The notes: generated from the sequence alone by a model not told the origin. Counted from the stretch's first letter, positions 2,347-39,633 are shown. The stretch: DNA of 39,817 nucleotides from Candidatus Omnitrophota bacterium (GCA_015234065.1 JADFWS010000002.1:1-39817); one strand, 5' to 3'. Numbers and translations are program-made.

Positions 2347-2375
2347 AATATAACGAGCGTTCGAAGGTTTGTCAA
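2347..2375 (-). promoter_or_regulatory. Sigma70-like promoter for the MshEN-pilB operon
   Basis: On the minus strand: TTGACA (2370-2375), an exact 17-nt spacer, then TATATT (2347-2352). It lies about 25 nt upstream of the ATG at 2321 and downstream of the rodA hairpin. Confidence 0.55.
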
Positions 2376-2502: not shown

Positions 2503-2541
2503 CAACAACCGCCATAACCCCGGAGGTTATGGCGGTTGTTG
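2503..2541 (-). terminator. 39-nt perfect palindromic hairpin (17-bp stem, 5-nt loop) just after the rodA stop; putative terminator and member of a repeat pair
   Basis: caacaaccgccataacc-ccgga-ggttatggcggttgttg. There is no clean U-tract. A near-identical copy lies at 22683-22721. Confidence 0.5.
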
Positions 2542-2546
2542 CGCTG

Positions 2547-3653
2547 TTATAACGAGCGCTTTTGGCTGATATTCAGAAGAAATCCCATCATGATCATAAA
2601 GACGAGAAAAGACGTGCGGCCGTAGCTGATGAGAGGCAGCGTGATACCAACCACCGGGCTCAGGCCCATGGTCATGGACATATTGATCACAACCTGCAGT
2701 GCCAGGATCGAGACGATCCCGGCCACCACAAGATACCCGAATTTATCTTTAAGCTTACCCGCGATCTCGATCGCAGTATAGATCAACACAAAATAACACA
2801 CAAGCAGCGCCATCGCGCCCAGGAATCCCCACTCTTCCCCGATCACGGAAAAAATAAAATCTGTATGCCGTTCAGGAAGAAAATTCAGCTGATTCTGCGT
2901 TCCGGCAAGCCAGCCTTTGCCCCATAACTGCCCGGACCCGATCGCGATCTTCGATTGAATGATCGTATATCCTGCGCCTAAAGGATCAATATTCGGATTC
3001 ATGAATACCAGCAGGCGGTCTTTCTGATAATCCTTTAAAAGATGCCAGCCCACCGGCACAAAGGCCAGGCACGTTCCGACAAAGATCAGGAACGGCTTGC
3101 GGTCGATCCCGCTCGCATAAAGCATCACGACAAAAATACCAAACACCAGAATGCCGCTGCCCAAGTCCGGCTGTTTAAAGATCAGCACAAACGACAACAG
3201 CATTAAAAAGAACGGATAGACCAAGTCCCGGCAAAGGGCATAAAATGAACTGCGAAAATTAAACGAAAGTTTGGGGTTGCGCGTGCTGAAATAACGCCCG
3301 AGCATGAGGATGACCGCGATCTTGGACAACTCCGACGGTTGGAAGCTGAACCCGAAAATATTGAACCAGCGCGTGGCGCCAAGAGCCGAACGCCCGACCA
3401 GCAAAACCGCCAGCAAAAAAAAGAGGTTTATGCCGTAAAAGACATATGCCCCTTCAAAGAAATGCCGGTAATTCATCCGGCCCAGAAAATACATGATCGC
3501 AATACCGGCACCCGCACAATAAAGCTGATCATAAAAAACCTGGTGCGACACGCGGACATTGTCGTACGACGCGCTATAAAGCGTTATCAGCCCTGCCCCG
3601 ATGATCAGGAGCGTGAATGTCCAAATAGTGCGCGGGTAGGACGGCTGGGTCAT
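2547..3653 (-). CDS. rodA: SEDS-family peptidoglycan glycosyltransferase (RodA/FtsW family), probably RodA
   Basis: 368-aa polytopic membrane ORF with family-typical motifs FQPSELSKIA, DLGSGIL, SGQLWGKG and PERHTDFIFSVIGEEWGF. Confidence 0.85.
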   Translation of the reverse strand: MTQPSYPRTIWTFTLLIIGAGLITLYSASYDNVRVSHQVFYDQLYCAGAGIAIMYFLGRMNYRHFFEGAYVFYGINLFFLLAVLLVGRSALGATRWFNIFGFSFQPSELSKIAVILMLGRYFSTRNPKLSFNFRSSFYALCRDLVYPFFLMLLSFVLIFKQPDLGSGILVFGIFVVMLYASGIDRKPFLIFVGTCLAFVPVGWHLLKDYQKDRLLVFMNPNIDPLGAGYTIIQSKIAIGSGQLWGKGWLAGTQNQLNFLPERHTDFIFSVIGEEWGFLGAMALLVCYFVLIYTAIEIAGKLKDKFGYLVVAGIVSILALQVVINMSMTMGLSPVVGITLPLISYGRTSFLVFMIMMGFLLNISQKRSL

Positions 3654-3659
3654 GCGGGG

Positions 3660-3881
3660 TCACTGTTTTTCCCAGGGCCAGGGGCATTGATATTTGCACG
3701 CGATCTCGGGATACGGCGTCTTCACACGCTTCAGGCAGGCCGCCTTGCAGCGAAAATTCTCCACAATCGGAACAAGCACAAACATAAGAACGATCACAAC
3801 CAAAAGGACTTTTCTCTGCCGATCCGATAAGAACGGCTTTTTTTGGTCTTTATTCTTCTTATCTTCTTTTTTTCTTTTCAT
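3660..3881 (-). CDS. Small single-pass membrane protein with a Lys-rich N-terminus and a twin-CX3C C-terminal tail
   Basis: 73-aa ORF that fills the gap between the Memo-AMMECR1 stop (3891) and the rodA start (3653). It has a TM segment VLLVVIVLMFVLVPIV and a tail with CKAAC...12 aa...CKYQC. No clear SD is present. Confidence 0.5.
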   Translation of the reverse strand: MKRKKEDKKNKDQKKPFLSDRQRKVLLVVIVLMFVLVPIVENFRCKAACLKRVKTPYPEIACKYQCPWPWEKQ

Positions 3882-3890
3882 CCCGAATAC

Positions 3891-5363
3891 CTATTCCTTT
3901 TCCCCGAACACGTCGGCTGTAAATATCTCGATCGTTGTGAGCGGATCCTTCCAGCACTCCGGCGGAAGCCCTGCTTTCTGCGCGCAGAGTTCACTCATGA
4001 ACCGCTCTTTGGACCAACCTGTTTCTGTCGCAACCTGCGGCAAGAACACCCCGCCTTTGCGGCCCTGACGAACAATAACGCCATGTGTCCCAAGCACGAT
4101 CTCATCCGCCCGCGCCAATCGCGGCCTGGACAGGACTGAAACTTCCACGTCAATATCGTTAAGCTCATCCGCGGTCACCGGATTAAACCGCGGATCCTCA
4201 CTCGCCGCCGCCACAGCCATAGCACGCACCGTTTTAAACAACGGGCCCTGGCCCATAATATTCCCGATGCACCCGCGCAACTGCCCCTGTTTGGTGAGCG
4301 TCACGAACGCGCCCTCTTCGACGGACAGCCGCGCGTCGTCCTCATCCACGGCCGGCGCCTTGCCTGTCCGCACAAACGCATCAAGCGCCGTGCGCGCAAT
4401 ATGTACCAGGCGTTTTCTCTGCGCCATACTAAGAGGCTGGATCCCGGGAACCGTTCGGTCGCGATACATCATGATCGACGCATACCCGACCACACTGGAA
4501 AGGTCTTTGGTCACATCCGCCGAGGTCGCATGCCGCAAAACCTTCGCCTTATTAAATCCGCGCGCCTTGGCATACATCATGGCCGTCGCCACCACATGAA
4601 ACCCGTCCACTTCCATGCGTCCGTCCTGATGCCCCTGCCACAGCGCATCAATATCCATGGCCTCGATCGCATTCAGGCCAACCTGATCGATCGCGCGCGC
4701 TTCCTTATCCGAATGAAAATGCGACTGGTCCACGCTTACATCAACAAGCACATCATCACGGTCACCAACCGCCAGCGCCAGCGCTTGCGCCATGGACTTA
4801 AGCACATCCGGCTCCGGCGGAAATCCCAAAATGACCGGAACGATCTTTGCCTCCGGAAAAACTTTCTGGATAAGCGGGATCTGGGTCTCGACCGAATTCT
4901 CTGCGCGGCCCGGGATCCCCGTAAACACATCCTGACGGAACGAAAATCGCTTGTCCGCGGCCAGGATCTTTTGCGCCAGGGCCGTGTCGACGGCCGCCAC
5001 ACCCAGCGGCGTTTCAAACCCGCCCTCACTCCACACCGCGGCGCCTTTAAACGAAATATGATGCGACGGCGCCAGAATAATGACCGTCGAAACCTTCTTG
5101 TTCGCCGCCGCGGCCTTAAAGCCATACGCCGCGACCGGGGCCGAGAACACATAGCCGGCATGCGGAGACACAATGACCGCGATATCCGCGTTCACCGGAA
5201 CATCCTTGACGGCCGCCAGATCCTGATCCAGCATGGACGACAATTCAGCCTGGCTCCCCGGATACCAGCTCCCGGCAAGCCCGGCGGATTTAATATTATT
5301 GTCGCCGCGCGCAAACGCTGTCATCGCCATAAGAATTATTAAACCGGACCAGAAGCTTTTCAT
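3891..5363 (-). CDS. Memo-like (AmmeMemoRadiSam protein B) / AMMECR1 (protein A) fusion with a predicted N-terminal signal peptide
   Basis: 490-aa ORF. N-terminus is MKSFWSGLIILMAMTAFA|RG. Memo motifs are AGSWYPG, SPHAGY, APSHH and DQSHFH. The AMMECR1 motif is LRGCIGN. The start shares 1 nt (TAATG) with the upstream stop. Confidence 0.85.
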   Translation of the reverse strand: MKSFWSGLIILMAMTAFARGDNNIKSAGLAGSWYPGSQAELSSMLDQDLAAVKDVPVNADIAVIVSPHAGYVFSAPVAAYGFKAAAANKKVSTVIILAPSHHISFKGAAVWSEGGFETPLGVAAVDTALAQKILAADKRFSFRQDVFTGIPGRAENSVETQIPLIQKVFPEAKIVPVILGFPPEPDVLKSMAQALALAVGDRDDVLVDVSVDQSHFHSDKEARAIDQVGLNAIEAMDIDALWQGHQDGRMEVDGFHVVATAMMYAKARGFNKAKVLRHATSADVTKDLSSVVGYASIMMYRDRTVPGIQPLSMAQRKRLVHIARTALDAFVRTGKAPAVDEDDARLSVEEGAFVTLTKQGQLRGCIGNIMGQGPLFKTVRAMAVAAASEDPRFNPVTADELNDIDVEVSVLSRPRLARADEIVLGTHGVIVRQGRKGGVFLPQVATETGWSKERFMSELCAQKAGLPPECWKDPLTTIEIFTADVFGEKE

Positions 5364-5812
5364 TAATTTTTACCATACAACATATCCAGGCTCCACGCAG
5401 ACGCCTTTGTCCTGTTCTTCAAACATAAAAACGCCGTCAGAAACATCGCCAGATCGAGAAAGAATACGCCCTGAAGCGGCCAATGGACCAGATTGCCGAA
5501 ACACCCGCAATCATTGATCGGCAGTTTGCGGATGATCGCCTGCCCCACCACGATCATCAGCGCGCCATTAAGAAGCATCGACGCGCGCAGCACCCAAACG
5601 AGCCACAACCCGGTTATCATAAAAATACCGGTTAAAAGTTCAAACCAGGGAAAAGCCGCAGCTATAAAAGCTTCGCTGCCGGAAGGGACTATTTTGTACG
5701 CCTGAAGGACATAGATAAAGTTCTCGACCGGGGAGGCGGCCTTCTCAACCCCGGAAACAATAAAGATCCCGCCAAGAATAATCCTGAGGATCAAAAAAAC
5801 ATTAATGGACAT
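5363..5812 (-). CDS. MauE/DoxX-family redox-associated membrane protein
   Basis: 149-aa ORF with four hydrophobic segments and a CGC motif (NDCGCFGN). It overlaps the DsbA-like gene by 11 nt. Confidence 0.7.
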   Translation of the reverse strand: MSINVFLILRIILGGIFIVSGVEKAASPVENFIYVLQAYKIVPSGSEAFIAAAFPWFELLTGIFMITGLWLVWVLRASMLLNGALMIVVGQAIIRKLPINDCGCFGNLVHWPLQGVFFLDLAMFLTAFLCLKNRTKASAWSLDMLYGKN

Positions 5813-6422
5813 GGCCTTCCACCACCTCTGTCAGCAACTTGCGGAAATTTTCGCCGCCAACCGCCATCTTGCCGTTCACCACAAAAGACGGCGTCGCACT
5901 GATCCCAATATCTTTTCCCTCTTCCATATTGCGAAGGATATGACCTTCGGTCAAAGGATTCTTCAGGCAGAATTCGAGGCGCTTGCCGTCCATGCCGAGC
6001 GACGCGGCCAGGCCGGTCAAATATTCATCCGGCGACCCAAGCGTACCCCAGCTTGTCTGGGTCTTGAACAGGACATCATGCATGGGCCAGAATTTCCCCT
6101 GCTCGGACGCGCACTCCGCGAACGCGGCGGCCCGGCGGGCATTCTTATGCATGGGCAACGGAAAATACTTCATTTCAAAATGGACCTTGTTGCCGTACTT
6201 CTTTAGCTCTTCGTCAACAACGCCCGATGCCTTGGCACAGGCAGGGCATTGAAAATCCGTATATTCGATGATCTCAACCTTGGATTTCGGATCTCCTTTT
6301 AAATGATTGAGATCATGCGTCACCTTTTTCGTCGGCGGCGCGACATGCCCTTTGGCAACCGCCATCACAACCGCGGCAACCGCCAGGATCAATGCAGTCA
6401 GAAGAATCTTTGAAACTTTCAC
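5802..6422 (-). CDS. DsbA-family thiol:disulfide oxidoreductase (thioredoxin fold, membrane-anchored or exported)
   Basis: 206-aa ORF with a GTG start preceded by GGGAGG, an N-terminal hydrophobic anchor and a CPAC active site (YTDFQCPACAKA). Confidence 0.85.
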   Translation of the reverse strand: MKVSKILLTALILAVAAVVMAVAKGHVAPPTKKVTHDLNHLKGDPKSKVEIIEYTDFQCPACAKASGVVDEELKKYGNKVHFEMKYFPLPMHKNARRAAAFAECASEQGKFWPMHDVLFKTQTSWGTLGSPDEYLTGLAASLGMDGKRLEFCLKNPLTEGHILRNMEEGKDIGISATPSFVVNGKMAVGGENFRKLLTEVVEGHVH

Positions 6423-6434
6423 AAAACCTCCCTG

Positions 6435-8048
6435 TTACACCGTCGGCCCGAACGCCACCAGCCGCTTGGCAGCCGGATCATCTTCAAACTTCTTGAAGTT
6501 CTTCACGAACATGGCTCCCAAATTACGGCAAGCCGTGTCATATTCCGCCTTATCCGCCCAACAATTCCGCGGATTAAGAAGTTTGCTGTCCACGCCTGTC
6601 ACTTTTTTAGGCAGTTCCACATTAAAGATCGGCATGATCTCGTGCTCCGCCCGATCAAGTTCGCCGTTAAGGATCGCGTCAATGATCGCGCGCGTCTGGA
6701 CAATGTCCATGCGATACCCGACGCCATATTTCCCGGCAACCCATCCGGTGTTGACCGCGTACGCCGTGGCCCCATGCTCCGCCATCTTTGCGGCCAGGAT
6801 CTTGGCATAATGGATCGGGTGCAGCGCTAAAAACGCCTGCCCGAAACACGACGAAAATGTTGCCTGCGGTTCGGTCACGCCAAGCTCGGTGCCGGCAAGT
6901 TTGGCCGTATACCCGCTTAGAAAATGATACATCGCCTGTTCCTTGCTCAACCTGGCCACCGGAGGCAAGACGCCGTAAGCATCACAGGAGAGAAAAATGA
7001 TCTTGGTCGGATGCCCGCCGCGGGACACCGGCGTCACAATATTCTGGATATGATCGATCGGATACGACGCGCGCGTATTTTCGGTCTTTTTCTCGGATTC
7101 GAAATCAATGCGCCCTTTGTCGTCGAGCATTAAATTCTCGAGGATAGCATTGCGCTTGATCGCATGATAAATATCCGGCTCTTTTTCCTTCGAGAGGTTG
7201 ATACACTTGGCGTAACACCCGCCTTCGAAATTGAACACGCCGGCATTGTCCCAGCCATGCTCGTCATCGCCAATCAGCTTGCGCTTGGGGTCCGCGGAAA
7301 GCGTCGTCTTACCAGTGCCGGAAAGCCCGAAGAACAGCGCGGTATCGCCCTTATCCCCCATGTTCGCCGAACAATGGAACGACCCTACGCCTTTTAACGG
7401 CAGGAAATAATTCATCATCGTGAATATTCCCTTCTTGATCTCACCACCGTACCACGTGCCGCCAATACAGGTCATACGCTCGGCAATGTTAAATGCGCCG
7501 AACACTTCTGTCCGCAGGCCGTACTTTTGAAAATCCTTGCAGGATGTTTTACAGGCATTCAGGACGACCCAATCCGGCTTGAAATTCTTGAGCTCAGCAT
7601 CCGTCGGGCGGATGAACATATTCTTAAAGAAATGCGCCATCCAGGCGATCTCGGTCACAAGGCGCACCGCGATGCGCGTATCCGCATTCGTGCCGCAAAA
7701 ACCGTCCATCACATACAATTTCTTGCCCGAAAGCTGCGCGACCGAAAGCCCCTTCACATGCTGCCACGCCTCAGGCGTCATGCGCCGGTTATCCGACCCA
7801 TTATCCGAAGCCGCCCACCAGACATTCTTATTCGATGACGGCTCATCCACGAAATACTTGTCCTTGGGAGAACGTCCGGTATATTTCCCGGTATCCACAT
7901 TGACCGCGCCAAGCTCGGTCACAACCCCGCGGGCATTGCCCTCGAGTGACGGATCGGTCTCGTGCTTGAAGAATTCATCGTACGAAAGATTGTACTGAAT
8001 GTCCGTAACGCCGGTGATGCCGAGCTGTGCGAGATACCCCTTAAGCAT
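6435..8048 (-). CDS. pckA: Phosphoenolpyruvate carboxykinase (ATP)
   Basis: 537-aa ORF with [13 protein letters not shown], the kinase-1a motif [11 protein letters not shown] and [18 protein letters not shown] precedes the ATG. Confidence 0.95.
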
Positions 8049-8447: not shown

Positions 8448-9032
8448 TTAATACCTGGGCACATACCCCATCGCCAGTTCGGTCACGATCCGCTTCTCGC
8501 CTTTAATATAGAATTCAGTCTCATACTTGGTCGCCTGATCACTCGGAAATTCGACACCATCGACCGCGGTATTGATATAACTTTCAAAATGCGACATCTC
8601 CAGATGAACATATCCCATATCCATCATTTCCTTGACGAAATACCCGGCCACAAGATTCGCCACCGTGCCGCATGCGTCGAGAACCATCATGTCGTCTTCC
8701 TCGTCGATCCTGGGATACTCCATCTGCCACAGCAATTTTGAAATATAATTCACAGGGATAAAGATCGTAAAACTGCCCACCGCCGCATGACGTTCCAAAT
8801 GCTCCTTATCCCGGCAAAAGAACACCGTCGAGAACGCGGTCCGGTCGCCGAATTTCTCAAGGCCGTCCACGCGCATCCTTTTCTCGAACTGAACGATATT
8901 CTTTTCTTTGGGTTCCGGATCGGCAGAAAGATAGATGCCGCCCTTTACCTGAAGCATTTTCTTCACCGCGATCGACAGGATGAGCGCGCATTGAAAAAGC
9001 TCCTGATGATGGGCGTCCCGAAAGTCAGGCAT
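8448..9032 (-). CDS. Hypothetical protein, possibly CheX/CheC-like fold
   Basis: 194-aa ORF. The segment EEDDMMVLDACGTVANLVAGYF resembles the CheX helix (..AIGELGNMTAG..), but the catalytic Glu position is Thr. The start shares 1 nt (TAATG) with the upstream receiver stop. Confidence 0.4.
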   Translation of the reverse strand: MPDFRDAHHQELFQCALILSIAVKKMLQVKGGIYLSADPEPKEKNIVQFEKRMRVDGLEKFGDRTAFSTVFFCRDKEHLERHAAVGSFTIFIPVNYISKLLWQMEYPRIDEEDDMMVLDACGTVANLVAGYFVKEMMDMGYVHLEMSHFESYINTAVDGVEFPSDQATKYETEFYIKGEKRIVTELAMGYVPRY

Positions 9033-16364: not shown

Positions 16365-17735
16365 TTATCGCAACGCCGTGCGGGTGATAACAAAGCGGAT
16401 CTCGCCGGCATTGAGATTGACATCGCCGAGGTCTTTGGAAGGCGCGGCAGTGCTGTTCAGGCGCAGGTGGTACGCCCCGGGATCAAGCACAAGCCGGGAC
16501 ACGCGGATCTGCCCGGGCAAGGCCTGCCAGCTGCGCAGGTCGGCCTGTTCGGAATACACGTTATACAAATTGCCGACAACGCCGAAAAGATCAGCGGCCA
16601 GCTTGCCGTAATGCTTTTCTATGTTTTCTTTCTGCTTGCGCAGGATCAAATATTTCAGTGCGGGCCTTACCACGGATTTCCCGAGAACAGATACCCGGCG
16701 GGCATCCAGGTCACGGACAGCAATATCTTCAATATCTGCGCCAAGCTCGCTGTCTTTTGATGCCCGCGGAATACCATTTTGCTCAGCCACAAATCGCGAC
16801 GCCGGATTCATCGCAGCCCTGCGCACAAATTTCGGAAATTCCATTTTTACAATAAATTCCCCATCGATCGGCAGCGGCACCATCTCCCCAACTTTCACCG
16901 GCGCAACGCCTGTTAGCTCGATCAGGATCACTTCCGATTTTTTCCGGCGCTCCCGCAGCGGCTCCGGATGAACGCCGGCAACGGCTTTTTGCTCCTCGCC
17001 CGGCATAGCATTGCCCAGATAATCCGCAAGCGCCATATAATTCTCTTTTAACATCTGCGGCGTATATGCCCCGGCATAATACCCTTCATACAACGCAAGC
17101 GCCTCTTTATAAGAAAGCAACGCATCCTGAAGGTCTGCCGGGGTCCCCTCGGCTTCATACAAAATCCCCATCAGGAACCGTGCAAACCCGTTATCCGCAA
17201 AATACGCCCGCTTGGCATTACGCGCTGCGCTGTCGATCACCTGATATTTAGCATCAAGATCTCGCGCCTCGACGAGCGCTTCCGCGATATTCCCCTGCGC
17301 CACATAATTGAGCGCCTGAATGACATTGATGAGCACATACTCATAATCCGATCCGCAATACGGGATCGTATGATCATTAATGAGCCAGCTCTCGGCCTCT
17401 GCCGTTATAGATTTGGTATACAGCTCCGTGAAACGCTGTTTCGCTTTTTCAAAACTCTTCTCACTATCCGCGTATTTGCCGGCGTAATGCTCGATCATGC
17501 CGCGGTCGAGATAATACAGCAGGTAATTCCCAGGCCCGTAATCCGCAGACTCGGCGCTGATCTTTTGAACGGCCTCATCCACATGGCCCGTCACAAGGAG
17601 TTTATTCACATCCGGCTGAAGCGCAGGCATGGGAGAAAGGCTTGCGCATCCGGACACAAGCACGATCGCGCTGAAAAGAAAAAGGGAACGCCTCACAGCG
17701 TCCCCTGAAAAACCGTCATGATGCATACATCTCAC
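16365..17735 (-). CDS. Helical-repeat (TPR-like) lipoprotein of unknown function
   Basis: 456-aa ORF with lipobox LVSGC. The GTG start forms a GTGA overlap with the upstream stop; an ATG 3 codons downstream is an alternative. I recall this architecture as the uncharacterised partner often found next to LpoB-like genes, but this is unverified. Confidence 0.6.
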   Translation of the reverse strand: MRCMHHDGFSGDAVRRSLFLFSAIVLVSGCASLSPMPALQPDVNKLLVTGHVDEAVQKISAESADYGPGNYLLYYLDRGMIEHYAGKYADSEKSFEKAKQRFTELYTKSITAEAESWLINDHTIPYCGSDYEYVLINVIQALNYVAQGNIAEALVEARDLDAKYQVIDSAARNAKRAYFADNGFARFLMGILYEAEGTPADLQDALLSYKEALALYEGYYAGAYTPQMLKENYMALADYLGNAMPGEEQKAVAGVHPEPLRERRKKSEVILIELTGVAPVKVGEMVPLPIDGEFIVKMEFPKFVRRAAMNPASRFVAEQNGIPRASKDSELGADIEDIAVRDLDARRVSVLGKSVVRPALKYLILRKQKENIEKHYGKLAADLFGVVGNLYNVYSEQADLRSWQALPGQIRVSRLVLDPGAYHLRLNSTAAPSKDLGDVNLNAGEIRFVITRTALR

Positions 17736-22722: not shown

Positions 22723-25488
22723 TTACGCCGAGGAACCTGCCATGGCTGCCTGGCTAAAAAGCGGCAGCGTGGTCGCGGGCTTGATATCCAGGATCACGGG
22801 TACCAGTCCGTCGATTTGAATATTGTCCAGATTCTGCTGACTGATCGGAAGCGGCATGCCCTTGCCATCCCGTTTGATCTGCATATTCAAGGTGGAAGAA
22901 TTAAGGTCGATACCACCATAGGGTACATTAGGCTGATTCATCGCGTTTTCGCCTTGATCCATCAACGCTTGTTTAGCAACTACAAAACCCCTGACATCAG
23001 CAATAAAATAGAGGCCTTGAGTCTTAGCCGTATTCATATCAGCTTCCCGCTTATCCCCGGCATCAATCTTCCAATTTGTAATAAAATCATTCAGCCTATC
23101 ACTCGATATCTTAATATTGTTAAGCGCAGCCCTCACAGCCATCTTATCTTGTCCATCTTCCGCTGATTGGAAGGCCTGCAAATTTTTTATCATGTTTTTC
23201 ATTTCTTGGTGAATCATTGCGTCAGACCACATAACTTTTTCAAAATTGACCAACGCCTTATAAGCCTGATGAACAATTTCCTCCGTCGTCATCGCGTTGT
23301 TGGCATAATAGTCAATCATTTGTTGAACGAACAAACCCGCCGTGCCTGCCATGAAAATGGCAACAGCAATTTCCCAAAGATTTCCCTTAACGGTGGGCCA
23401 CACATGTATCTTAAGCGCTTCACGCCATGTTATATCTTTAGGCGCCATTCTGGCCGTCTTCAACGCGTCAACCTGACTCAACAGATTATCAACCGCGTTA
23501 ATAGCTCGGCTGTATTCTTTACGCAATTCCTCTTCAATTCTCGCTTTAACTTTCTCCACATTAACAGCATCCTTAACAACATTATTAACAACGTCCTTAA
23601 AAAGACTATTAAAACCATCATTAACATCATCATTAAAACCATCATCAGCCACATTATAATTATATTTATATTCCGTAAGTGCTATCTCAACAGCCTGCCC
23701 TGCCGTAAGTAAGCCATCTAGCTGTCCATTCTTAATTTTCTCTAACTGATTCTGTAAAACCACTAATGTCAGCGCAAAAATTCTGCCTTTCGCCCGTGGA
23801 AGTGCTCTTAAATTTATTTCATTTCTCCGGGCACCGCCTTTACCTGCAAAACCCCTCACCGCATAGTGAAGATCTCCCCGCTCTATCTGGTATGCTGCCT
23901 CTGCCGCCAAGCTCCTCTCACGCAAATAACCCGTCGCACCAGAAAGAAGGCCGTTGCCGGATATCATCGCGGCATTGCCTTCAATTGTGGCCCTGAAAAT
24001 AACAAATGGGATTCCCGGAGCGTCAGGGCCGTTTTCTTGATATACATCTAATACAGGGATAGCCCATACACCGGCGGCTCTCGCTTCTTTTTCCGCTGCT
24101 AAAAGTTGCACCTGCAATAATTGCCGCTGGTCTCTTACAAATTCATTCCACGTATCAGCAGTAACCTGCATACCTGGCGGGGCAAGAATTTTAACCCCAA
24201 CCTCATAATGCCCACCCTTTGCATTTTTCGCATGCTCAGCCACGGATGAAATAAAAACATCATTTGCCGTTACCTGACCTGTTGTCGAATTTGATGGCGC
24301 TATGATCGTCATCGCGGATTCATTCGTATTATTCCTCTTGCCCGGCGTATGCTGATTAAAAACAGTCGGAACAAGATCAGACCCTGATGCCACCGTATCA
24401 GCTACGTTAGGAGGTACTACGCCCTGAGCACCCCGCATTGCCACCACCATATTCGGTATTGCCATCGCATTGTCATACCCACCCGAAAAATACTTGCGCG
24501 GGATCACTTCCTGGGTAAAACGGTCCGTATCTTCCTTGATCATACTGAACACGCCTTTTTTAAACGCCTGCGTGTATTTTTCGAAGATCTCGACATTATT
24601 CTTCGGATCCTGATCAACGCCCTTGATCTTGGACCGGTCGCCATATACTTTGGTAAGGATCGATTCCTTGAGTGCCAGCTTGTACCAGGTAGCCAGAAGC
24701 ATTCCACTATATATCTGACGCAAGGGTGCAAAATTCTGGCCTTCGTTCACTTCTTTCTCGATCGCCGGAATAATGACCTCGCGCATGACCGACAGGGAAA
24801 TCTTGCCAACATCTTTCTGCGCCGACTCATCGTCAGCCACGTTGTTCTTCATGGCCAAATAATCCGTTTCCGTCATCACCTTGAGGCTGCTCTCGAGCAC
24901 ATAGACCACATTATCCTTCTGATACAACTTGACCGTGCTCGGCACGATCCAGACCTTGCTGAACGTATCCGTCGGAACATCTGTGGTGCCGAACTTTTCA
25001 TACGCCTTCTGATACACACCGTCCCAAAACTTCTTGCCGAGGTCTGTGTCGGGATTGGTTAACGACGCGGAGATCTGTTTTAAAATATAGTCCTGCGCCA
25101 GAAGGTCGCGGCCCATTTCGGTCTGGCCGAAATTATCCGCCACAATGCGGTCTTTTTCATACGGGGACAAGTTCACCCACTGGTCTGTTTCCGGGATCGC
25201 CAGCGCCGCGAGAAAATACTTGATGAGCTTGGTATATTCTTCCTGCTTCTGATCCGCGGCCAGGGTTTCATTTCCGCGATGAATGATAAAATCAAACTTG
25301 AAGGGGTTCTGCGGATCGATCACCATGCCCCGCAGATGCGCCGGCGTATACGCCGCACTCATGCCCATCTGAACGCCAGGCTCCGGCATCATGCCGACCG
25401 CGCTCATGACCTGCGCATATCCAGCCGGCGGCATAATGCCATTCAAAATAAACGCCGCAAGCACGAGCCATAACATTGTCTTTTTCAT
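22723..25488 (-). CDS. Large secreted/envelope protein of unknown function, compositionally mosaic
   Basis: Start trimmed to MKKTMLWLVLAAFILNGIMPPAGYAQV (signal peptide), with AAGGGGG upstream. The ORF is uninterrupted. It has a GC-rich N-terminal module, an AT-rich centre and a C-terminal GGIDLN...IDGLVPVILDIKP module. I recognise no catalytic motif. Confidence 0.8.
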   Translation of the reverse strand: MKKTMLWLVLAAFILNGIMPPAGYAQVMSAVGMMPEPGVQMGMSAAYTPAHLRGMVIDPQNPFKFDFIIHRGNETLAADQKQEEYTKLIKYFLAALAIPETDQWVNLSPYEKDRIVADNFGQTEMGRDLLAQDYILKQISASLTNPDTDLGKKFWDGVYQKAYEKFGTTDVPTDTFSKVWIVPSTVKLYQKDNVVYVLESSLKVMTETDYLAMKNNVADDESAQKDVGKISLSVMREVIIPAIEKEVNEGQNFAPLRQIYSGMLLATWYKLALKESILTKVYGDRSKIKGVDQDPKNNVEIFEKYTQAFKKGVFSMIKEDTDRFTQEVIPRKYFSGGYDNAMAIPNMVVAMRGAQGVVPPNVADTVASGSDLVPTVFNQHTPGKRNNTNESAMTIIAPSNSTTGQVTANDVFISSVAEHAKNAKGGHYEVGVKILAPPGMQVTADTWNEFVRDQRQLLQVQLLAAEKEARAAGVWAIPVLDVYQENGPDAPGIPFVIFRATIEGNAAMISGNGLLSGATGYLRERSLAAEAAYQIERGDLHYAVRGFAGKGGARRNEINLRALPRAKGRIFALTLVVLQNQLEKIKNGQLDGLLTAGQAVEIALTEYKYNYNVADDGFNDDVNDGFNSLFKDVVNNVVKDAVNVEKVKARIEEELRKEYSRAINAVDNLLSQVDALKTARMAPKDITWREALKIHVWPTVKGNLWEIAVAIFMAGTAGLFVQQMIDYYANNAMTTEEIVHQAYKALVNFEKVMWSDAMIHQEMKNMIKNLQAFQSAEDGQDKMAVRAALNNIKISSDRLNDFITNWKIDAGDKREADMNTAKTQGLYFIADVRGFVVAKQALMDQGENAMNQPNVPYGGIDLNSSTLNMQIKRDGKGMPLPISQQNLDNIQIDGLVPVILDIKPATTLPLFSQAAMAGSSA

Positions 25489-25530
25489 AAAGACCCCCTT
25501 GAAACTTATTTTAGAAAGTACGAACTCCAC

Positions 25531-38297: not shown

Positions 38298-38697
38298 TTT
38301 TATCTTTAAGAGCGCTTGTTGCCGCGCGATCCGCCTCGGCATTCTCTGCCCGGGGGATCGCCTTACATTCCACTTTTTTAAAACCTTTAAGCAATATCGA
38401 CGCTTCCTGATGAAGCGGAATAATATTCGGGTGTTTAACTTTATACGTCCCCTTAAGCTGAAAGAAAACCAGCTCGCTGTCCATGCGCAGGCGGATATGC
38501 TCAGCGCCAAGCGCCTTAACCTCTTTAAGCCCGCGGATCAGGGCCGAATATTCCGCGATATTATTCGTGGCCGACCCGATCGCCTCGGAAACAGTATGGA
38601 CCGTAACCCCGCCCTGCTTGATCACAACCCCGATCGCCGCCGGCCCGGGATTCCCGCTGCAGGCACCGTCCGTAAACACGTCGTAGATCGCGCTCAA
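38230..38697 (-). CDS. rnhA: Ribonuclease HI
   Basis: 155-aa ORF with a TTG start (TTGA overlap with the upstream stop). The DEDD residues are in context: FTDGAC, NNIAEYSAL, RMDSELV, AEADRAA. The last ~22 codons run into rnpB. Confidence 0.85.
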   Translation of the reverse strand: MSAIYDVFTDGACSGNPGPAAIGVVIKQGGVTVHTVSEAIGSATNNIAEYSALIRGLKEVKALGAEHIRLRMDSELVFFQLKGTYKVKHPNIIPLHQEASILLKGFKKVECKAIPRAENAEADRAATSALKDKKAGQDGRSDEFIVGEESPSSKG

Positions 38698-39410
38698 AGC
38701 TCATCCTCAATATACAAAAACCGCGTGCACATATCACAGCGCACCACTTCGGTATACATCCGGATCTTGTTCAAGACCTGCGGCGGCTGAAGCATGAAAC
38801 ATCCCCCGCACGTATTGTTCACGAGCGGCACAACCGCCGACCCGTCACGGTTCTCGACCACTTTTTCATATACCGACAGCGTATGCGCATCCATGCCAGC
38901 CATGGCCTCTTTACGCCTGACATCAACAACCGCGACTTTATCCTTAAGGCCGTTGATCACGCCATCGACCTTATTCTTCTCGGCAAGATATTTCTGTTCT
39001 TCGGCGTCAACAATCGCCTTTTCCTTCGCAATATCCTGGATATTCTTTTCCGACTCATCCATGAATTTAAGGACTTCTTCCTCAAATTTGGATTTATCCG
39101 CCTTCATGTTCTCGATCTCAAAAAGCCGTGCCTGATATTCCTTGTTGGTCTTAAGCAACATAAGGCCGTTATTCGCCTTGAGGATATCCTCTTCTTTACT
39201 TTTAAGATCAAGCTCTTTGGCCTTACGGGCACGCTCCAGGTCCTGAGCTTTTTTCTCCAGCGTATGGAACCGTGCTTTCTTCGCATCAAAAACAGCCTTG
39301 ATCTCGTCGAGAAGAATGGGCGTTTCCCGCAATTCACGCTTGTACTCATAAAGCTCAACATCGATCTTCTGCAGTGCAACAAGCTTCCTGATCAGGTCCT
39401 TCACATCCAT
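38694..39410 (-). CDS. Coiled-coil protein with a C-terminal C4 zinc ribbon (COG1579/DUF164-like)
   Basis: Start trimmed to MDVKDLIRKL (ATG at 39410), because the longer ORF overlaps tRNA-Val. It has a long heptad-rich region and then CGGC...17 aa...CDMC. Confidence 0.8.
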   Translation of the reverse strand: MDVKDLIRKLVALQKIDVELYEYKRELRETPILLDEIKAVFDAKKARFHTLEKKAQDLERARKAKELDLKSKEEDILKANNGLMLLKTNKEYQARLFEIENMKADKSKFEEEVLKFMDESEKNIQDIAKEKAIVDAEEQKYLAEKNKVDGVINGLKDKVAVVDVRRKEAMAGMDAHTLSVYEKVVENRDGSAVVPLVNNTCGGCFMLQPPQVLNKIRMYTEVVRCDMCTRFLYIEDEL

Positions 39411-39460
39411 TCCGGCCACGAGTCCCCTTCTTTCAACTTGAACAACGGATAAACTAAAAA

Positions 39461-39537
39461 TGGTGGACACAGTAGGAATCGAACCTACGACCTCTGCCAT
39501 GTGAGGGCAACGCTCTAACCAACTGAGCTATGTGTCC
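39461..39537 (-). tRNA. tRNA-Val (anticodon CAC), 3' CCA encoded
   Basis: The cloverleaf folds by hand: acceptor GGACACA/UGUGUCC, anticodon arm UUGCC-CUCACAU-GGCAG, T arm GUAGG-UUCGAUU-CCUAC, then ACCA. Confidence 0.93.
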
Positions 39538-39559: not shown

Positions 39560-39633
39560 TGGGCCCACCTGGACTCGAACCAGGGACCAAGAGATTATGA
39601 GTCTCCTGCTCTAACCGACTGAGCTATAGGCCC
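39560..39633 (-). tRNA. tRNA with anticodon CAU, probably the lysidine-type tRNA-Ile2 rather than elongator Met; CCA not encoded
   Basis: The cloverleaf is GGGCCUA...GGAGA-CUCAUAA-UCUCU-UGGUC-CCUGG-UUCGAGU-CCAGG-UGGGCCC-A. The anticodon arm, variable loop and C4/C5 acceptor pairs resemble E. coli tRNA-Ile2 as I recall it. It is not initiator-like. Confidence 0.85.

Follow-up and report, generated by a model that had tools for sequence, protein, structure and literature searches.

Does a Memo-AMMECR1 fusion that is predicted to be exported and is encoded beside a DsbA-like/MauE-like redox pair, as found in a Candidatus Omnitrophota bacterium (GCA_015234065.1, JADFWS010000002.1:1-39817), belong to an undescribed module, or is it a variant of a system that already has a name? 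From archaea to humans, Memo and AMMECR1 have been conserved; MEMO1 is a subject of research on cancer and metal homeostasis, an X-linked syndrome has been connected with AMMECR1, and we know of no established chemistry or biochemical function for either protein. The key comparative paper, by Burroughs et al. (2019, J Biol Chem 294:10211), whose abstract reportedly ties Memo to nucleotide-base and isoprenoid modification, lay outside our literature search, which found no paper characterising the bacterial AmmeMemoRadiSam system. An earlier, sequence-only reading of this DNA had presented the locus as its top candidate for an undescribed module, i.e., a periplasmic variant of that system whose partners are thiol-disulfide proteins. 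We find instead that it is a lineage-specific variant of the already named system and not a new kind of system: the arrangement is indeed real and confined to a lineage, but secreted fusions are common and usually keep their radical-SAM partner.

Gene arrangement

The window, i.e., the whole 39.8-kb stretch of DNA that was analysed, carries four closely coupled genes at positions 3660-6422, all on the minus strand. An ORF check recovered all four with the coordinates that the sequence-only reading had given them, together with the overlaps of 11 nt between the first two genes and of 1 nt (TAATG) between the second and third. They encode a DsbA-like thioredoxin-fold protein that is predicted to be periplasmic (5802..6422; 206 aa, GTG start), a MauE/DoxX-family membrane protein (5363..5812; 149 aa), the Memo-AMMECR1 fusion (3891..5363; 490 aa), and a microprotein with four cysteines (3660..3881; 73 aa). 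The start of rodA (2547..3653, minus strand), coding for a SEDS peptidoglycan polymerase (TIGR02210 rodA_shape, 384.6 bits versus a cutoff of 336.7), lies 7 nt past the microprotein stop. From the dsbA-like gene through the mauE-like, memo-ammecr1, and microprotein genes to rodA, neighbours thus overlap or lie no more than 12 nt apart, and rodA as the last gene of the unit is directly followed by a strong, terminator-like hairpin (2503..2541, minus strand; 18-bp stem with 9 G-C pairs). Upstream, a gene for ATP-dependent PEP carboxykinase (PEPCK; 6435..8048, minus strand; TIGR00224, 789.6 bits) ends 12 nt ahead of the dsbA-like gene, with which it may be co-transcribed. The closeness of this housekeeping gene indicates that unrelated genes share the unit. 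We further note a promoter-like site (2375..2347, score 11/12) ahead of the gene that follows the rodA hairpin, and a signal peptidase I gene elsewhere in the window.

Domains and metal site of the fusion

The fusion comprises a Memo domain (PF01875, residues 28-297, 4473..5282 on the minus strand; E 3.6e-55) and an AMMECR1 domain (PF01871, residues 320-486, 3906..4406 on the minus strand; E 1.7e-52), and every motif quoted for it in the sequence-only reading is present in the translation. Scoring with the NCBIfam models, as that reading had proposed, placed both halves above the curated cutoffs of AmmeMemoRadiSam protein B (TIGR04336, residues 27-298; 219.8 bits versus 26) and protein A (TIGR04335, residues 318-486; 176.6 bits versus 99). 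More than 7000 homologues were found, and pipelines already annotate homologues of the fusion as AmmeMemoRadiSam system protein B or B/A.

Human MEMO1 binds Fe or Cu via H49, H81, and C244 (PMC11081632). Relatives invariably share His68 and His101 of the fusion, the region of which is spanned by the MEMO1 profile alignment; Asp253 (codon 4605..4607, minus strand, within GRMEVDGFHVV) aligns with MEMO1 C244 in profile alignments with structures 7KQ8 and 3BCZ. The window fusion therefore keeps both histidines of a MEMO1-type His-His-Cys site with Asp253 replacing the cysteine. This metal-ligand column holds Cys in 94% of the fusions aligned and in 48/48 of the nearest relatives, whereas all 71 of the 71 members of the window's own clade, hereafter Asp-type, carry Asp. 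His68, His101, and Asp253 are thus predicted to be a 2-His-1-carboxylate set. LigB-type extradiol dioxygenases have Glu there, comparable to the Asp of the fusion. The AMMECR1 domain, which matches archaeal PH0010 (1VAJ) at E 3e-31, has kept Cys365 of its LRGCIGN motif (codon 4269..4271, minus strand), a residue that is invariant in 78/78 fusions aligned.

Export signal

By inspection, the fusion begins with MKSFWSGLIILMAMTAFA followed by RG, with A-F-A at positions -3 to -1. This matches what is expected of a Sec signal, namely a positively charged n-region (MK), a hydrophobic core of 7-15 residues (SFWSGLIILMAMT), and small residues at -3 and -1 (AFA before RG), and residues 1-18 (5310..5363, minus strand) are accordingly a predicted signal peptide with n/h/c organisation and a conserved N-terminus. 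The signal-peptide-like N-terminus described earlier therefore holds at the level of sequence: M1 is coupled to the mauE stop (TAATG) in the window and in orthologous loci, and a hydrophobic N-terminus with a small-x-small site around 10 residues ahead of Memo recurs in most of the 120 closest homologues. We reject an internal start at M12 or M14, which would make the fusion cytoplasmic, because M1 overlaps the mauE stop and because protein-level conservation of the hydrophobic stretch upstream of these methionines extends to dozens of relatives. A number of public gene calls without the stretch have truncated starts; the Elusimicrobia fusion (L081), for example, truly begins with MRQLALFSALILMTATSC.

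Signal-like N-termini were seen in ca. 64 of 81 fusions across many phyla, and signal or lipoprotein peptides occur on around 80% of related fusions from 80 genomes of many phyla. The assumption that Memo and AMMECR1 usually exist as two separate proteins in the cytoplasm thus fails for bacteria, where the fused, signal-bearing form is common. The fusion copies of Smithellaceae have lost the hydrophobic signal region, suggesting that the enzyme is apparently able to work without periplasmic partners.

Radical-SAM partner

ORF searches and Pfam scans confirmed that the 39.8-kb window has no CxxxCxxC radical-SAM-type ORF. The conclusion drawn from this in the sequence-only reading, that an exported fusion cannot cooperate with a radical-SAM enzyme, did not survive comparison with other genomes. 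Cognate TIGR04337 genes, the very neighbours that it had named as speaking against its model, adjoin 33 fusions with signal-peptide-like N-termini elsewhere (33 of the 34 radical-SAM-adjacent fusions). Their products often bear Tat-like or hydrophobic signals of their own, so that export does not preclude radical-SAM cooperation. TIGR04337 genes beside related fusions score 360-390 bits versus a cutoff of 220. A family search with the CxxCH insert found in some of these radical-SAM enzymes gave nothing significant.

The window lineage nevertheless differs from other loci: its 13 contexts are all free of radical-SAM genes to a distance of 10 kb, whereas 22 of the 37 other loci that could be evaluated have one within 3 kb (Fisher p = 1.6e-4, without phylogenetic correction). 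Since the gene is absent beside the fusion in the other 15 of these 37 loci, an unlinked gene appears to be common. A tie between the Cys-to-Asp switch and the lost adjacency is unsupported, as the Cys-type loci L003, L088, and L089 have the same arrangement and likewise no radical-SAM gene.

Redox pair and microprotein

The dsbA-like gene has a GGGAGG ribosome-binding site before its GTG start, and its product combines a hydrophobic N-terminus ending in AVA before KG with a CPAC site within FQCPACAKA. Pfam matches to Thioredoxin_4 (E 1.4e-25) and DSBA (E 1.7e-14) are both above cutoff, so that the thioredoxin fold, CxxC site, and export signal expected of a DsbA-type protein are all predicted for it. 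Among NCBIfam models, the one for the Rcas_1661 thioredoxin-like lipoprotein family comes closest, with a score below its cutoff, and the NCBIfam DsbA equivalog gives 20 bits versus a cutoff of 290. The MauE-like protein matches PF07291 MauE (E 3.3e-19, 69.9 bits versus a cutoff of 27) and PF07681 DoxX (E 2.5e-6), shows four hydrophobic segments by inspection, and contains NDCGCFG. If the positive-inside rule holds, the helix 3-helix 4 loop that carries this CGC motif is predicted to be periplasmic. The MauE family is generic, and NCBI calls members "redox-associated membrane protein".

The microprotein starts with a Lys-rich segment, probably on the cytoplasmic side, which is followed by a single hydrophobic helix predicted to span the membrane and a predicted periplasmic CX3C...CX3C-PWPW tail (CKAAC...CKYQC). 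It matched no family in Pfam, NCBIfam, or a further family search. Its own family counts 83 clusters among 5.8e9 proteins, with identities of 55-82%; most carry an Omnitrophica label and one an Elusimicrobia label, and the C-terminal motif is nearly invariant among relatives. In the contexts examined, it always sits between an Asp-type fusion and rodA and was seen only there, with its gene overlapping rodA in L001, L084, and L085. A transmembrane anchor without leader and the nearly invariant tail do not fit a RiPP precursor, and we found no recognised maturase in the window block.

Conservation of the neighbourhood

The survey of neighbourhoods that the sequence-only reading had called for gave a divided answer. 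DsbA, MauE, and fusion adjoin one another in 13 of the 14 contexts sampled from one Omnitrophota lineage, with fusion identities of 46-100%; elsewhere the association was not found, an outcome that the sequence-only reading had likewise named as speaking against its model. Neither gene was found beside other fusions of the 80-genome survey, the Omnitrophota relative L004 has no DsbA/MauE beside its fusion, and neither DsbA/MauE nor the microprotein nor any shared neighbour accompanies the fusion orthologues of 62-67% identity from Elusimicrobia (L081) and Smithellaceae (L082, L002). The two Smithellaceae loci share no neighbours either, and the idea that Asp-type fusions generally lie beside peptidoglycan genes is therefore rejected.

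Within the lineage, the flanks of the three-gene core vary. PEPCK may be present upstream (the order PEPCK-DsbA-MauE-fusion is also found in L003, L088, and L089) or absent, and downstream come either microprotein-rodA or other, unrelated genes, among them HTTM/DCC1-like or PPK2. In a sister Omnitrophota lineage, a radical-SAM gene is followed by the fusion gene and then by a DsbD_2 gene, the last two overlapping; this coupling is an independent link of the fusion to a thiol-redox membrane protein.

Proposed function and alternatives

We consider it about an even bet (probability around 0.5) that the locus is a lineage-specific envelope operon built around an exported AmmeMemoRadiSam B-A fusion together with a redox pair, the microprotein, and RodA. 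Following Sec export and cleavage after AFA18, the fusion would work on the periplasmic side of the inner membrane. Its substrate there would be extracytoplasmic, most probably part of the envelope rather than a nucleic acid. The DsbA-like protein with its CPAC site and the MauE-like protein with its periplasmic CGC could form a MauD/MauE-type thiol-disulfide relay, which would set the redox state of the periplasmic cysteines of the operon, i.e., the four of the microprotein as well as Cys365 and Cys460/Cys470 of the fusion. An unlinked gene may supply the radical-SAM step, or the window lineage may have come to do without it, and the data fit either. Export, cleavage, and topology as well as all redox interactions are predictions at the sequence level.

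Against the envelope-operon reading, the linkage is seen in one lineage with largely conserved long-range synteny, so that shared descent explains part of the linkage between DsbA, MauE, and fusion. Fusions without DsbA/MauE in Elusimicrobia, Smithellaceae, and L004, the missing signal region of the Smithellaceae copies, and PEPCK as an unrelated member of the unit speak against it as well. A possible though rather doubtful account is that the synteny is coincidental and that the DsbA/MauE pair is the lineage's general periplasmic disulfide system, lying beside an unrelated enzyme and rodA. The adjacency is confined to one Omnitrophota lineage in which gene order is conserved over 10-20 kb (SPOR, LpoB, and response regulators, then RodA, MshEN, and T2SSE), is missing from close orthologues in other phyla and from L004, and includes PEPCK within the same tight array; that the MauE family is a generic one fits as well. 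Yet the three genes of the core remain adjacent and start/stop-coupled even where the flanks change (L083, L003, L088, L089), another Omnitrophota lineage shows translational coupling of the fusion to DsbD_2, and the four-Cys microprotein of the block would need a thiol-redox system.

The original model of a radical-SAM-independent periplasmic variant, in which thiol-disulfide proteins replace the radical-SAM enzyme as partners, now seems unlikely. The difference in radical-SAM adjacency (0/13 versus 22/37), the ligand change from Cys to Asp in the window clade, and the conserved association with thiol-redox genes all point its way, but its logic fails on the signal-peptide-like N-termini of 33/34 radical-SAM-adjacent fusions and on the Tat-like or hydrophobic signals of the radical-SAM proteins themselves, while 15 of 37 other evaluable loci lack the adjacent gene just the same and the Cys-type L003, L088, and L089 dissociate its loss from the Asp switch. 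Similarly improbable in our view is that the fusion is independent of radical SAM (with no TIGR04337 in the genome), uses a dioxygenase-like 2-His-1-Asp centre, and makes up, with a dedicated DsbA/MauE relay and the microprotein, a periplasmic envelope module beside RodA. Very improbable, and drawn by analogy, is a modification module in which the microprotein with its four Cys and two Trp is the substrate, DsbA/MauE makes its disulfides, the fusion modifies it, and the product acts with RodA. The microprotein occurs only beside Asp-type fusions in the contexts examined, its gene overlaps rodA in three loci, its periplasmic tail is nearly invariant, and the MauE family owes its name to quinoprotein maturation. 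The idea builds on co-location. Asp-type fusions of Elusimicrobia and Smithellaceae as well as Cys-type relatives with the DsbA-MauE-fusion core do without the microprotein, and we know of no precedent for Memo or AMMECR1 acting on peptides. A loose parallel to such a module is methylamine dehydrogenase, whose Cys-rich quinoprotein subunit depends on MauD/MauE for its maturation.

Implications

Bacterial Memo-AMMECR1 fusions usually carry an export signal and often lie beside a radical-SAM partner that bears a signal as well. If the fusion signals are functional, the substrate is extracytoplasmic in the bacteria concerned, which argues against nucleic-acid targets there and points toward the envelope. 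New here are the Asp-type clade (71/71), a microprotein family seen only in the block, and the DsbD_2-coupled second Omnitrophota lineage. The window clade offers three experimental handles in the Cys-to-Asp ligand switch, the conserved thiol-redox operon, and a dedicated microprotein beside rodA, and a lineage truly without the radical-SAM enzyme would be a natural minimal system for finding the role of Memo-AMMECR1.

Comparison with known systems

Human MEMO1 (3BCZ, 7KQ8) belongs to the same fold family as the fusion (profile alignment over residues 26-290, E 1e-32), and in this alignment SPHAGY and APSHH of the fusion match the corresponding MEMO1 motifs that we take to hold ligands H49 and H81. 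The fusion differs from it by Asp at the position of C244, by its predicted export, and by being joined to AMMECR1. The archaeal AMMECR1 proteins PH0010, MM0484, and ST0229 (1VAJ, 1ZQ7, 1WSC) align end to end including LRGCIG (E 3e-31 to 3e-21), as does the CAQKAGLPPECW region, both cysteines of which are matched in PH0010 and ST0229. Given these matches and a variable position 470 among signal-peptide fusions, we reject Cys460/Cys470 as a disulfide gained on export. The archaeal proteins are stand-alone, with 207-230 residues, and the profile aligns from their first residues, leaving no room for a signal peptide, whereas the fusion is a two-domain protein with a predicted signal peptide.

In the sister Omnitrophota lineage, the role of a thiol-redox membrane partner beside an exported fusion falls to CcdA/DsbD-type transporters (DsbD_2), which are of another family, lie downstream of the fusion with a radical-SAM gene adjacent, and are absent from the window. 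The MauD/MauE pair of methylamine dehydrogenase clusters likewise comprises a thioredoxin-fold CxxC protein and a MauE-family protein encoded by adjacent, overlapping genes. Those clusters contain methylamine dehydrogenase genes and mauG, neither of which was seen in Pfam scans of the window ORFs; the pair instead neighbours PEPCK, fusion, and rodA and so does not belong to a mau cluster, and no curated MauD model is as close to the partner of the MauE-like protein as DsbA/Thioredoxin_4 is. To the AmmeMemoRadiSam system (TIGR04335 for A, TIGR04336 for B, TIGR04337 for the radical-SAM enzyme) the window contributes a fusion that is both B and A. It differs from that system in having no nearby radical-SAM gene, in the window as in 13 lineage relatives, and Asp in place of Cys, and its fusion carries a predicted signal peptide and sits in a dsbA-mauE...microprotein-rodA unit.

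Organization of the gene block and its surroundings

The four genes picked out by the sequence-only reading exist exactly where it had placed them, all on the reverse strand. They encode a DsbA-like protein of 206 aa (6422..5802; Thioredoxin_4/DSBA) whose N-terminus is hydrophobic and whose active site reads CPAC, a MauE/DoxX-family protein of 149 aa with an NDCGCFG motif (5812..5363; 11-nt overlap with the dsbA-like gene), the Memo-AMMECR1 fusion of 490 aa (5363..3891) that starts within a TAATG overlap, and a 73-aa microprotein (3881..3660) without a family match, in which a single hydrophobic helix separates a Lys-rich N-terminus from a CKAAC...CKYQC tail. Scored with NCBIfam models of the AmmeMemoRadiSam system, the fusion reaches 219.8 bits for protein B (TIGR04336) and 176.6 bits for protein A (TIGR04335), both above the curated cutoffs and in agreement with its initial domain assignment. 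We also confirmed by a motif scan and by Pfam scans of the remaining ORFs that a radical-SAM gene is absent from the window. Since gaps of only 7 nt and 12 nt separate the microprotein gene from rodA and the PEPCK gene's end from the dsbA-like gene, respectively, and rodA is directly followed by a terminator-like hairpin whose stem has 18 bp, the unit begins with the dsbA-like gene (or pckA) and closes with rodA; a promoter-like site precedes the next gene.

The remaining window is ordinary chromosome that encodes PilB/MshE ATPases, response regulators, a 7TM histidine kinase, NAD synthase, FadL, LpoB, SPOR, PlsY, LepB, LepA and aromatic amino-acid genes, and the nearest relatives of its proteins carry the Omnitrophota label. 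A 935-aa ORF that matches no Pfam family (22723-25530, reverse strand) sits in its lowest G+C stretch (0.43-0.49 vs about 0.52-0.55 elsewhere). No confident family was found for a 456-aa protein with weak lipoprotein and TPR signals (16365-17735, reverse strand) or for a 194-aa protein with a weak CheX-like match that is encoded between two response-regulator genes (8448-9032, reverse strand), and the positions of both genes are kept in related loci. At the window end lie genes for tRNA-Val(CAC) (39461-39537) and tRNA-Met(CAT) (39560-39633), both on the reverse strand, and the start of a 268-aa ORF at 38694..39500 is probably over-extended because the tRNA-Val gene overlaps this ORF's end.

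Export signal and metal site of the fusion

Translation of the fusion from its first methionine is coupled to mauE, both in the window and in orthologous loci, where the overlap is 1 nt or 4 nt. Most of its 120 closest homologues start with basic residues, continue with a 10-15-residue hydrophobic core and a small-x-small site, and then enter a conserved mature N-terminus, [DE][DN]N[IV]K. The signal peptide predicted early on is well supported by this coupling and the conserved hydrophobic N-terminus, and the same two features rule out an internal start. Many homologue entries lacking a hydrophobic N-terminus start partway through that region and appear to be truncated predictions, as we confirmed on DNA for homologue P0023 (9965-11467 in the Elusimicrobia locus L081). 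Public gene calls for P0008, P0018, P0023, P0024, P0068, P0075 and other homologous proteins start at an internal Met that cuts off the signal peptide, so automated localisation surveys would undercount exported fusions. In a set of 80 GTDB genomes that covers many phyla, about 64/81 fusions have a signal-type N-terminus, and lipoboxes are present in many. In Smithellaceae, orthologues of 61-64% identity are preceded by a good ribosome-binding site and lack the hydrophobic region; all that remains is SFADD, a vestige of the cleavage site, and export looks to have been lost secondarily.

One column of the aligned fusions is Cys in 94% and Asp in the window, and Cys365 of the AMMECR1 domain is invariant. 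In a profile alignment to MEMO1, Asp253 of the window protein falls on C244, which together with H49 and H81 constitutes the crystallographic Fe/Cu ligands of MEMO1 and whose position is occupied by Glu in LigB-type dioxygenases (PMC11081632). The 120 closest homologues split cleanly at this column (Asp in 71/71, Cys in 48/48), and only two further positions tell the groups apart. With Asp253 aligned to C244 and fixed in the clade, the window enzyme carries a 2-His-1-carboxylate site by sequence. The Smithellaceae copies are likewise of the Asp type (L002 10001-11458, L082 10001-11449 and proteins P0043-P0060) and are singleton genes without conserved neighbours.

Radical-SAM partners of exported fusions

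When the neighbours of 80 fusions were clustered, a 385-aa CxxxCxxC family was found to adjoin the fusion in 33-35 loci, and three representatives score 362-391 bits on the model of the system's radical SAM enzyme (TIGR04337; cutoff 220). Among fusions in the tree with a radical-SAM gene in their locus, 33/34 bear signal-peptide-like N-termini, which refutes the earlier argument that export excludes a radical-SAM partner. The radical-SAM proteins themselves have N-terminal extensions outside the coverage of TIGR04337; next to fusions, about 16 show a Tat-like RRxFL (RRxFLK) motif with a hydrophobic stretch, about 8 a plain hydrophobic N-terminus and about 7 neither (export types at L012 8808-9920, L036 969-2087, L041, L042, L046, L051 and L059). 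For an Omnitrophota example, 119/120 homologues (P0121-P0240) start hydrophobic, with a lipobox-like L-x-[AG]-C in many of those examined. Such export-type N-termini on fusions and radical-SAM proteins alike make the whole AmmeMemoRadiSam system appear extracytoplasmic or membrane-associated in many bacteria.

Radical-SAM chemistry in the periplasm would be out of the ordinary, since the enzyme would have to be supplied there with SAM and a low-potential reductant. The Nitrospirota loci L023 and L029 pair a lipoprotein-type fusion with a signal-less radical-SAM protein. Four partners from Acidobacteriota, Desulfobacterota and Latescibacterota (L064 11552-12775, L067 459-1763, L072 4942-6234 and L079 8651-9928) carry, behind a Tat signal and before the radical-SAM domain, a conserved insert, A[RK][YF][WY]x[ST]...CxxCH, that matches no Pfam family significantly (DUF1924, E 0.05) and contains the haem-c attachment motif CxxCH. 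Outside Omnitrophota, the second commonest neighbour of the fusion/radical-SAM pair is a spermidine-synthase-like, multi-pass membrane protein of 700-850 aa, the NF037959 fused MFS/spermidine synthase (PF01564), which occurs in 26 loci (e.g., L014 11393-13648, L024, L046, L051, L064 and L072).

Linkage to thiol-redox genes

Our first survey detected the DsbA/MauE pair beside the fusion only in the window, L001 and L003. Targeted look-ups revealed a contiguous DsbA-MauE-fusion arrangement in 13/14 contexts from a single Omnitrophota lineage, with fusion identities of 46-100% (the window, L001, L003, L083-L089 and the contexts of proteins P0009 and P0069, with L004 as the exception). Assemblies behind these loci include JBAXRK01 for L001, GCA_964438075.1 for L083, GCA_012514595.1 for L087 and GCA_040960315.1 for L088. 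On the upstream side, PEPCK occurs in some contexts only, and L083 carries unrelated genes there; downstream come microprotein-rodA, PPK2, or unrelated genes, among them one of HTTM/DCC1-like type. With flanks changing on both sides, the core is steadier than its surroundings. Conservation of this neighbourhood across relatives holds within one lineage and fails beyond it: neither the Elusimicrobia orthologue (L081, 67% identical) nor the Smithellaceae orthologues (L082, L002) have DsbA/MauE neighbours, and the latter two have none in common. These loci count against a general functional link between DsbA/MauE and the fusion. Relatives with the Cys-type ligand (L088 12136-13389, L089 14606-15904) carry genes for HTTM, a vitamin-K-carboxylase-like membrane domain, and/or a DCC1-like thiol-disulfide oxidoreductase downstream of the fusion, which are further redox-type envelope genes of the same region.

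A second Omnitrophota lineage (L008, L010, L011, L015, L018, L022) has the gene order radical SAM, fusion, DsbD_2 (the latter at L008 11463-12179, L010 4177-4815, L015 11383-12108 and L018 11383-12144), and the DsbD_2 gene (PF13386, E 1e-20) overlaps the fusion gene's end in L008 and L010. DsbD_2 proteins are membrane thiol-disulfide proteins of the CcdA-like type, and the unit is followed by RsmE and a MiaB-like gene. As an exported fusion is coupled to one thiol-redox membrane protein in the first lineage and to a different one in the second, we regard a functional relationship as probable and as specific to the phylum.

Candidate mechanism and relation to known systems

Building on the established operon structure, domain identities, conserved export signal, altered metal ligand and within-lineage linkage, we give a probability of about 0.5 to a dedicated relay. 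The fusion would be exported by Sec and cleaved after AFA18 to a mature form beginning RGDNNIK, the CGC loop of the MauE-like protein would be periplasmic according to the positive-inside rule, and a MauD/MauE-like relay would control the periplasmic cysteines of microprotein and fusion, the substrate of the latter being located in the envelope. Coincidental synteny, with DsbA/MauE as a general folding system, would suit the Elusimicrobia and Smithellaceae loci better than it suits the steady core and the DsbD_2 linkage, and we consider it possible though doubtful.

The radical-SAM-independent module of the sequence-only reading is consistent with the lack of a radical-SAM gene within 10 kb in all DsbA-MauE-fusion contexts (0/13, vs 22/37 other evaluable loci with one within 3 kb; p = 1.6e-4, with no phylogenetic correction); it seems improbable next to the many signal-bearing fusions that do have this partner. 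The microprotein family comprises only 83 clusters among 5.8 billion proteins, and for at least 21 of these the contig has the same length as one that carries an Asp-type fusion. Its gene lies between Asp-type fusion and rodA in 9/9 contexts examined and encodes a nearly invariant tail, NFRCKAACLKR[VI]KTPYPEIAC[KQ][YF][QE]CPWPW. A module for microprotein modification would match this position and tail, but other genes follow the fusion elsewhere in the lineage, and we regard such a module as very unlikely. The dedicated relay is our preferred reading.

In the open literature, with Burroughs et al. 2019 outside the search, we found no account of exported forms, the Asp clade, the microprotein, or links to DsbA/MauE or DsbD_2. 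The most valuable by-product of our analysis is that export signals are often present on the system, its radical-SAM enzyme included. The window fusion belongs to the named A and B families and carries that annotation in public data but, unlike canonical AmmeMemoRadiSam, has neither a linked radical-SAM gene nor the Memo Cys ligand; it is a variant of a known but functionally uncharacterised system.
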